Virus record (IMG/VR): IMGVR_UViG_2874962485_000007
Length of the DNA: 21,382 nucleotides
DNA from: a virus
Taxonomy: Duplodnaviria > Heunggongvirae > Uroviricota > Caudoviricetes
Reading direction: 5' to 3' (one strand)
The translations under genes were made by a program, and so were the position numbers. Every line of letters begins with the position of its first letter. Position 1 is the first letter of the stretch. Shown piece by piece: positions 3,875 through 4,800 of this stretch. Under the pieces are notes generated by a model that saw only the letters and a program-made list of their open reading frames with translations, was not told the origin of the DNA and ran no database searches.

Positions 3875-4046
3875 TATTGGCTACGTAATTAAAACAGAAA
3901 ATAAAGAAACCCCATTCACTGTAGTTGATATCGACGGTCTATCAGGAAACTTTAAAACTCTTGTTGAAGGTGCCACAAAAATGTGCCTAGTTTACATCGG
4001 AAATAATCTGCCCGCAGAAAAAAAGCCGAATTTCTGGCAAATCTGA
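3875..4046 (+). pseudogene. 3' portion of a small ORF split by IS600 (joins 6141..6065 on the other strand)
   Basis: Reading frame ...IGYVIKTENKETPFTVVDIDGLSGNFKTLVEGATKMCLVYIGNNLPAEKKPNFWQI* starts directly at the IS600 right end. It joins in frame to the 25-codon 5' fragment at 6141..6065 when the TAT target duplication (3875..3877 / 6065..6067 reverse complement) is collapsed. Confidence 0.6.
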
Positions 4047-4085
4047 TTGCAATGAAATTAAAAGGTGAAATCTGAAAAAAAGAAA

Positions 4086-4104
4086 GCCTGCACAGTGTGC
4101 AGGC
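4086..4104 (-). terminator. Perfect 9-bp-arm hairpin with U-tract on the minus strand (intrinsic-terminator-like, antisense to flanking ORFs)
   Basis: GCCTGCACA-G-TGTGCAGGC palindrome. On the plus strand it is preceded by an A-tract (GAAAAAAAGAAA), so the hairpin-then-U-run arrangement exists only on the minus strand. Confidence 0.4.
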
Positions 4105-4174
4105 CTGAGTGAAGAACCTGGGACATTTATTCATCACTCGCAGTAATTTTAATCTGAGTTGAGGTTAAAAAACA

Positions 4175-4800
4175 ATGAGCACAAAACCACTCTTCCTGTT
4201 ACGGAAAGCGAAAAAATCATCCGGTGAACCTGACGTCGTCCTGTGGGCAAGCGACGATTTTGAATCGACCAGCACCACTCTGGACTATCTGCTCGTTAAG
4301 TCAGGTAAAAAACTGAGCAACTATTTTAAAGCTGTTGCCACAAATTTTCCTGTCGTTAATGACCTTCCCCCTGAAGGTGAGATCGATTTTACCTGGAGTG
4401 AACGCTATCAACTCAGCAAAGACTCCATGACATGGGAACTAAAACCGGGAGCAGCGCCAGACGACGTTCACCACCAGGATAATGCTCAAGAAACCAAAGA
4501 ACTGGCGGGAGGCCAGGAAGAAAACGCGCAGGCAGACGCCCACGAGGATTGCCAGGATTGCGAAGTCTCTGTAGCCACTTTGCGGTTCACACAGCGTCTT
4601 CTGCACATTTTTACGTATGCTGCCGGGGATCTGAAATACCTGCATCATGCCACCCGTGAACAACGCAAACACATTACTGCTCTTGAGATGGATCAGGAAA
4701 ACAGCTATGTCCAGAATCTGCTGTTGGCCATACGCGGCATGGCAGAACCGACAACTCTGGATAATGCCGCCCTGCTCCGCCTGACTGATGCAATTAAGGC
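4175..4800 (+). CDS. Hypothetical protein, 3'-truncated by IS600 (at least 208 native codons)
   Basis: 645-nt [33 protein letters not shown]... with an acidic low-complexity linker ([31 protein letters not shown]). The last 6 codons and the stop (4801..4819) are supplied by the IS600 terminal repeat, so the native C-terminus is missing. No family recognised. Confidence 0.6.

Follow-up and report, generated by a model that had tools for sequence, protein, structure and literature searches.

This locus raises the question of what the two reading frames enclosed by a pair of inverted IS600 copies are, and how they came to lie close to an ipaH effector gene. The window, that is the whole stretch of DNA analysed (21,382 nucleotides of the IMG/VR virus record IMGVR_UViG_2874962485_000007), carries between these copies a 926-bp segment with one truncated small frame and one longer frame. 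The preliminary description of the locus had assigned neither to a family and had regarded them as cargo in a moron context, possibly a small protein with its partner. We arrived at a different reading: the 926 bp very probably go back to the early-left (recombination) operon of a Rac-type lambdoid prophage in Shigella flexneri, of which they are a remnant made up of flipped pseudogene pieces of racC and recE.

The limits of the segment are set by the two insertion elements. IS600 copy 1 occupies positions 2611–3874 on the plus strand, with orfA at 2675–2977 and orfB at 3013–3831, and IS600 copy 2 lies inverted at 4801–6064 on the minus strand. The two form the arms of an inverted repeat, each of 1264 nt, with a complementarity of 99%. 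They are separated by exactly 926 nt (3875–4800), in agreement with the earlier geometry, and of the 11 positions at which they mismatch, seven fall in a cluster at IS positions 768–816. Each copy is listed with transposase reading frames of 100 and 272 aa, and RefSeq E. coli DNA that is 99% identical to both elements bears the label 'IS3-like element IS600 family transposase'. A length of about 1.26 kb, terminal inverted repeats, orfA and orfB, and a 3-bp target duplication at racC, all traits of the IS600 family, were found here, and in S. flexneri IS600 is reported to rank among the two commonest IS elements (PMC4226921). Copy 1 is bordered by a DUF4376 tail-fibre-assembly-like gene at its left end and by the 3′ part of racC at its right end, and copy 2 by recE codon 209 at its right end and by the 5′ part of racC at its left end. 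The 926 bp in between contain the 3′ two-thirds of racC, the racC–recE spacer and the start of recE up to codon 209. In the spacer, a pattern scan picked out a GC-rich hairpin on the minus strand (4084–4106; 10-bp stem with six GC pairs), which has a T-run on the minus strand only and which, as a consensus match, would be terminator-like antisense to racC–recE; no RNA family was found within 3875–4800 with Rfam.

The longer frame was recognised as the beginning of recE, the gene coding for exodeoxyribonuclease VIII. Its 5′ fragment, with 209 residues, extends over positions 4175–4800 on the plus strand and was assigned through PF06630, phrog_607, NF007259 and protein alignment. As it is read, the ORF (4175–4819) is a chimera of 214 aa, composed of native residues 1–209 followed by EVYWQ and a stop codon from the right end of IS600, and codon 209 spans the junction yet still encodes alanine; it had been noted before that IS codons replace the native C-terminus, and the last five codons and the stop do lie within the IS600 end. 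The product matches the Pfam family Exonuc_VIII (PF06630) over the entire profile (positions 1–203 of 203; E = 2.8e-67; 227 bits against a cut-off of 25) and phrog_607 with E = 7.8e-75, and it aligns to positions 1–188 of 877 of NCBIfam NF007259, exodeoxyribonuclease VIII, with 196.7 bits, below the cut-off of 1269 bits. Full-length homologues exist: RecE of E. coli OZ040973 (883 aa) is about 98% identical over residues 1–209 in the protein alignment, the acidic linker included. At the DNA level, the 926 bp match 1786 of 5426 complete E. coli genomes, 278 of these over at least 80% of the query length and with up to 99.6% identity. Among the matches listed in E. coli, the annotation is 'recE: exodeoxyribonuclease VIII' together with a small phage protein, and in the Rac-type phages matched it is 'exodeoxyribonuclease VIII' together with 'protein RacC'.

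What the window retains of RecE is the Exonuc_VIII domain and the start of the acidic linker region. In the full-length RecE of OZ040973, PF06630 is located at residues 2–182 and the PDDEXK-like domain PF12684 at residues 632–867; in the window fragment PF06630 is present and the PD-(D/E)XK nuclease domain is gone, the frame ending at residue 209 plus five IS codons. Alignment to relatives revealed no further recE-like DNA in the window, and recT and the genes downstream are absent from it. The PD-(D/E)XK nuclease domain of K-12 RecE comprises approximately residues 564–866 and carries the exonuclease and recombination activity, and the N-terminal region is described without an assigned function (PMC11611040). 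A PDB sequence search with the 209-aa fragment gave no meaningful match (best E = 0.3), in keeping with the report that RecE has been crystallised only as its C-terminal nuclease domain (PMC11611040). The window fragment is the dispensable quarter of RecE, without the catalytic part. Since it has the PF06630 domain but fails both the catalytic domain and the full-length cut-off, the long ORF would best be filed as a 'recE pseudogene fragment' and not as RecE.

The small frame corresponds to racC, now present as two halves on opposite strands, 2.2 kb apart. The 3′ part, from codon 26, is located at 3875–4075 on the plus strand (phrog_4778, NF007306 and alignment with intact racC); as read, it stops at 4044–4046 owing to a frameshift, and the native stop would be at 4073–4075. 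The 5′ part, codons 1–26, is located at 6065–6141 on the minus strand with its ATG at 6141–6139, as placed by reconstruction and by colinearity with E. coli FDAARGOS_944, and keeps its native orientation behind ydaE and Rha. The gene was rebuilt by joining the minus strand from 6141 to 6065 to position 3878 onward, whereby one copy of the 3-bp duplication was removed. The preliminary description had also reassembled a split small ORF with its 3′ part in the segment, and this reconstruction is borne out, since 3875–4046 joins 6141–6065 by colinearity with FDAARGOS_944; its count of 82 aa is corrected here to 81 aa, the intact reference being the 91-codon racC of E. coli OZ040973. The rebuilt protein matches phrog_4778 with E = 2.8e-42 (positions 1–79 of 91) and NCBIfam NF007306 with E = 2.1e-41 (positions 1–78 of 91; 140 bits, under the 171-bit cut-off), and Escherichia phages label the homologue, directly upstream of recE, 'protein RacC'. 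With E-values from 1e-42 to 1e-75, chance similarity is excluded for these homologies.

An intact, contiguous frame of 91 codons was not found for racC, which, besides being split by IS600 at codon 26, is frameshifted at a run of A residues. In the MAFFT alignment this run has seven residues in the window (4018–4024, plus strand) and eight in the intact gene, a −1 frameshift by which the last 17 residues of RacC are swapped for seven others. The same frameshift is common to E. coli FDAARGOS_944 and FDAARGOS_943, both flagged as 'frameshifted' in RefSeq, and therefore this lesion is older than the IS600 insertion.

E. coli FDAARGOS_944 provides an uninterrupted relative of the window prophage, being 99.1–99.6% identical over window positions 3875–4800, 6063–7818 and 11857–17657. 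Its genes run in the order Rha, ydaE, racC (frameshifted), recE-like, gam, AAA ATPase, xis, int and ybhA, and this closest relative is also without recT; in OZ040973 the order is kilR, ydaE, racC, recE, recT, ralR, xis and int. In the window, racC lies upstream of the truncated recE with the native spacer. Judged by this gene order, racC and recE belong to the prophage's own early-left operon and are not an accessory cassette beside ipaH. Profile searches with both proteins, together with the inspection of the neighbourhood, have thus put names to the pair, RecE and RacC in Rac-type synteny, and the longer frame turns out to be a piece of a phage gene that is well characterised, an outcome that the preliminary description had itself named as refuting its reading.

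The comparison with FDAARGOS_944 also locates the insertion. Window positions 3873–4800 align to FDAARGOS_944 8999–9926 and window positions 6063–7818 align to 9005–7251, on the other strand; window position 3875 equals FDAARGOS_944 9001 and window position 6065 equals 9003, so the three bases 9001–9003 (TAT) are present twice. One copy of this target-site duplication is the TAT at 3875–3877, as placed by this correspondence and by the flank sequences, and the second is the ATA at 6065–6067, its complement. The duplication is evidently the product of a single insertion of IS600 into racC codon 26 and, since one of its halves now borders copy 1 on the inside and the other borders copy 2 on the outside, the DNA between the two inverted IS600 copies must have been flipped. 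Before the flip the segment would have been co-directional with the gene at 1992–2609, and on this point the earlier geometry is correct.

The second IS600 end sits at recE codon 209, and the order of events has to be considered. The two IS600 copies probably inserted independently, and homologous recombination between them would then have flipped the segment, a succession that is favoured because the copies differ at 11 positions. It is rather unlikely that the flip occurred in one step, with the IS600 at recE codon 209 transposing intramolecularly into racC and inverting the intervening DNA. Such a step predicts the observed placement of TAT and ATA, but insertion followed by recombination predicts it equally, and 11 differences in 1264 positions are unexpected in a recent duplicate, unless gene conversion with another IS600 took place later. 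Moreover, IS3-family elements follow a copy-out-paste-in transposition through a circle, and this route is not known as the classic one for replicative inversions.

The contact with ipaH involves the other junction of the segment. The DUF4376 tail-fibre(-assembly)-type gene is located at 1992–2609 on the minus strand (Pfam PF14301, phrog_1141), and ipaH lies beside it, 2 kb from the segment, at that end of the prophage which adjoins pgl. The DUF4376 homology continues in EIEC genomes into a gene labelled 'prophage tail fiber N-terminal domain', and in the window it ends at 2609, the gene being severed from the upstream tail-fibre gene by IS600 copy 1. At the junction made by the IS, the DUF4376 gene is the foreign partner. 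The DUF4376 side reads CATG up to the IS at 2610 and the recE side reads AAGGC up to the IS at 4800, without a shared duplication. Because these flanks have no common duplication and are not neighbours in the intact prophage, we infer that two separate insertions recombined to give the IS600 that now joins recE to the tail-fibre/ipaH end; the contact with ipaH is an IS600-made junction and not a moron cassette. By the logic of the orientations, this join would have come from an inversion of the interior of the prophage, with a reciprocal junction elsewhere. The predicted reciprocal 30-mer (IS600 left end, GGC and recE codon 210 onward) had no exact match in a genome-contig collection, although the same collection does contain the recE–IS600 junction, in S. 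flexneri SFBU1023 and in a 4.44-Mb genome labelled E. coli ECMA0423; the reciprocal product has therefore been lost or altered, or the history is more complex. The left boundary of the remnant is pgl–ybhD–ybhH and the right boundary, reached via an IS66-family element, is ycaD–ycaC–dmsCBA–serS and not ybhA, in line with further rearrangement of the remnant.

The arrangement is widespread in its inverted form. The exact 214-aa chimeric ORF was found in 363 blocks of an assembly collection, 32 of them with contigs larger than 1 Mb, and the chromosomes seen measure 4.4–4.7 Mb. The orientation of the segment was read by linkage across the IS, the junction 30-mers being the same in both states and hence uninformative, and nine of nine testable loci showed it inverted, just as the window does. 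It follows that the inverted arrangement is fixed in S. flexneri and is not a flipping switch.

Could the segment nevertheless be a moron cassette, or the cargo of an IS600 composite transposon, delivering a functional ipaH-linked pair of a small protein and its partner? It is bracketed by two IS600 copies, with an ipaH effector gene 2 kb away, and intact racC–recE has been reported as a blocker–trigger pair of retron-Sen2/Eco9 (bioRxiv 10.1101/2020.06.22.160242), but we consider such a cargo extremely improbable, hardly credible on the evidence of the flanks. The outer flanks of the IS600 pair are ATG (2608–2610) and ATA (6065–6067), without the common target duplication of a composite transposon. 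In FDAARGOS_944, the DNA of the inner flank (3875) directly adjoins that of the outer flank (6065), so that the segment has never moved as a unit. The place of both genes in Rac-type prophages, moreover, is the conserved early-left operon, a long way from ipaH, and a functional pair is contradicted by the disruption of both racC and recE, neither of which gave a Pfam or NCBIfam match to chaperone, effector or toxin–antitoxin families; the significant hits in Pfam, PHROG and NCBIfam were confined to Exonuc_VIII/RecE and the RacC family. It is the flanking sequences and the colinear FDAARGOS_944 that led us to reject a composite transposon or moron cargo. Of the functions previously suggested for the pair, anti-defence is appropriate for the intact family, for which it has been published, and not for this locus, and the chaperone/effector and toxin suggestions found no matching family; nor does the proposed moron context stand, the genes being native to the early-left operon.

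As an operon remnant, both frames are pseudogene fragments, and their present activity is most likely none. Lacking the PD-(D/E)XK nuclease, and with no recT in the window, the recE fragment is unable to serve as exonuclease VIII or as the partner of a recombinase. The published roles concern the intact K-12 racC–recE and retron-Sen2/Eco9: in a systematic screen the toxin RcaT of retron-Sen2 was blocked most strongly by RacC, and RecE triggers the retron toxin–antitoxin system via degradation of the mature msDNA (bioRxiv 10.1101/2020.06.22.160242). The window locus would fall outside this blocker–trigger role, its recE fragment having no msDNA-degrading nuclease and its racC lacking the first 25 codons and the native C-terminus. 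No sigma-70-like promoter was found in a pattern scan of positions 3700–4950. The segment is downstream of, and co-oriented with, the transposase genes of IS600 copy 1, from which read-through transcription into it is possible, and a hybrid ORF of 67 aa (3843–4046) has its ATG within the IS600 end and continues in the racC frame over codons 26–81; read-through into this hybrid and the recE fragment is a residual possibility, of a few per cent at most.

A role for the fragments themselves, in which the 214-aa RecE N-terminal domain and/or the 67-aa hybrid would be made by read-through and act, for instance, against a retron-type toxin, is in our estimation highly improbable. As the N-terminal region of RecE has been given no function, some remaining activity of the fragment is formally conceivable. 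In front of the recE fragment the native ribosome-binding region has been kept (GAGG, about position 4160), and the fragment is co-oriented with the IS600 transposase genes, but no promoter-like site is present in the segment. The exact ORF is conserved in many S. flexneri genomes; in a clonal species, however, conservation is no evidence of selection. Full-length RecE performs better than the bare nuclease domain in linear–linear recombination, so the N-terminal region contributes (PMC11611040), and RacC blocks RcaT potently even without inducer (bioRxiv 10.1101/2020.06.22.160242). Nevertheless, the C-terminus of racC had already been lost by frameshift in the IS-free relatives and here the first 25 codons are missing too, and the sister lineage FDAARGOS_943 has both genes cut elsewhere, which is a pattern of neutral decay.

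E. coli FDAARGOS_943 carries, beside ybhA, a close relative of the window prophage. In it, racC and recE have been hit by independent IS600 insertions (at about codons 15 and 179, respectively), and the segment lies uninverted. The IS600 sites are 34 bp from those of the window in racC and 90 bp in recE, with opposite IS orientations, in addition to the racC frameshift that the two lineages share. This double hit may represent a hot spot, local hopping or coincidence in dispensable DNA. We hold it very unlikely that the disruption of racC–recE in invasive E. coli and Shigella is non-neutral, whether through a hot spot for IS600, through selection for silencing of a recE that would trigger a host abortive-infection system, or through an anti-defence activity of the RecE fragment or of the IS600–RacC hybrid. 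The locus is a case of ordinary genome decay, and a candidate for an unknown effector-linked gene pair is removed from the list. It can serve as a worked example of the IS600-driven decay of a prophage, comprising an insertion with its 3-bp duplication, a flip and the joining to a prophage end that is not a neighbour, and the independent IS600 hits of racC and recE in the second lineage, FDAARGOS_943, are a mildly useful by-product.

When compared with known systems, the recE fragment shares with RecE of the E. coli Rac prophage and of Rac-type phages the N-terminal domain, the acidic variable stretch after about residue 95, the racC gene upstream and the spacer; it differs in comprising only the first quarter of the protein, without the nuclease domain and without recT downstream, and in having five IS600 codons as its C-terminus. 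The racC of the window matches the family profile of the 91-aa RacC of the Rac prophage and occupies the canonical place upstream of recE, but it is split by IS600 at codon 26 and has its 17 C-terminal residues changed by the frameshift. As in other IS600 insertions and IS-mediated inversions or deletions in Shigella, the elements are 1264 bp long, with orfA and orfB, a 3-bp duplication and an inverted pair around the flip, whereas one copy in the window is without a matching duplication, indicating further rearrangement. Finally, as in the ipaH islands of S. flexneri and EIEC, ipaH is found beside a DUF4376 gene at a prophage end near pgl; in the EIEC islands the DUF4376 gene is preceded by a tail-fibre gene, whereas in the window IS600 joins it to the recE fragment. 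All components of the locus are of kinds already known, namely racC and recE of Rac-type prophages, IS600, and the IS-mediated inversion and decay of prophages in Shigella.

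In the E. coli FDAARGOS_944 locus, the closest relative without the IS600 interruption, the recE-like frame (in the region 9301-11240 of that locus) departs from RecE beyond about residue 540 and stays open, with no stop up to at least position 11240; gam and a gene for an AAA ATPase come after it in place of recT, and RefSeq labels the recE-like gene 'incomplete, missing C-terminus'. The RecE nuclease may have been lost in this prophage lineage earlier than any arrival of IS600.

A second close relative, E. coli FDAARGOS_943 (5001-8394 of its locus), carries IS600 in both racC (around codon 15) and recE (around codon 179), at sites corresponding to approximately 6098 and 4710 of the window. 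The positions and orientations of these copies are unlike those of the window, the racC-recE segment between them is uninverted and the recE-side copy adjoins a truncated int; these insertions are independent of those in the window. Repeated insertion of IS600 into racC and recE could be due to an IS600 hot spot, to local hopping or to recurrent inactivation. Among S. flexneri genomes, IS600 copy 2 also varies in length, being 27 bp shorter in some of them (loci L005, L009 and L012), with a flank-to-flank distance of 3427 instead of 3454 and a transposase call of 376 instead of 385 amino acids.

Taken over its entire length, the 926-bp segment between the two IS600 copies is 89-97% identical to Rac-type phages. 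Its racC-recE spacer contains a strong hairpin (4084-4106, minus strand); since a T-run is present only on the minus strand, the hairpin resembles a terminator that would act on transcripts running antisense to racC-recE. We also identified a hybrid ORF of 67 amino acids (3843-4046, plus strand), whose ATG lies within the IS600 right end and which shares its reading frame with racC codons 26-81; some S. flexneri annotations include this ORF among their gene calls (7669-7872 of both L008 and L011).

Directly upstream of the gene for a Rha-family regulator (6514-7362, minus strand) are a C4 antisense RNA (7123-7210; Rfam, 75.7 bits) and isrK (7235-7311; Rfam, 61.5 bits), both on the minus strand, and a mechanical ORF call of 318 amino acids extends over the two RNAs. 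This layout is the usual arrangement of an antirepressor controlled by antisense RNA.

The early and late regions of the prophage are full of additional IS elements (7865-11776 and 17690-21382): an IS2-like element (7865-9111), two IS66-family elements (9161-11776 and 19434-21382), an IS3-family element (17690-18894) and a repeated 241-nt IS2 fragment (19162-19402), amid which a fragment of an Rz-like lysis gene (18900-19148, minus strand) is stranded. Downstream of the prophage queH gene (16374-17060) lies a hok/sok type I toxin-antitoxin locus (17118-17443, plus strand), composed of a sok RNA (117 bits) and a Hok-family ORF of 70 amino acids (17231-17443, plus strand).

The edges of the prophage remnant were read from 1-2609 of the window, L005 1-6435 and L015 1-10000. 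The left edge is formed by ybhH-ybhD-pgl, followed by ipaH and a DUF4376 gene. The right edge, outside the window and across an IS66-family element, is ycaD-ycaC-dmsCBA-serS, whereas in E. coli FDAARGOS_944 this edge is occupied by ybhA, a difference that implies a larger chromosomal rearrangement in S. flexneri.
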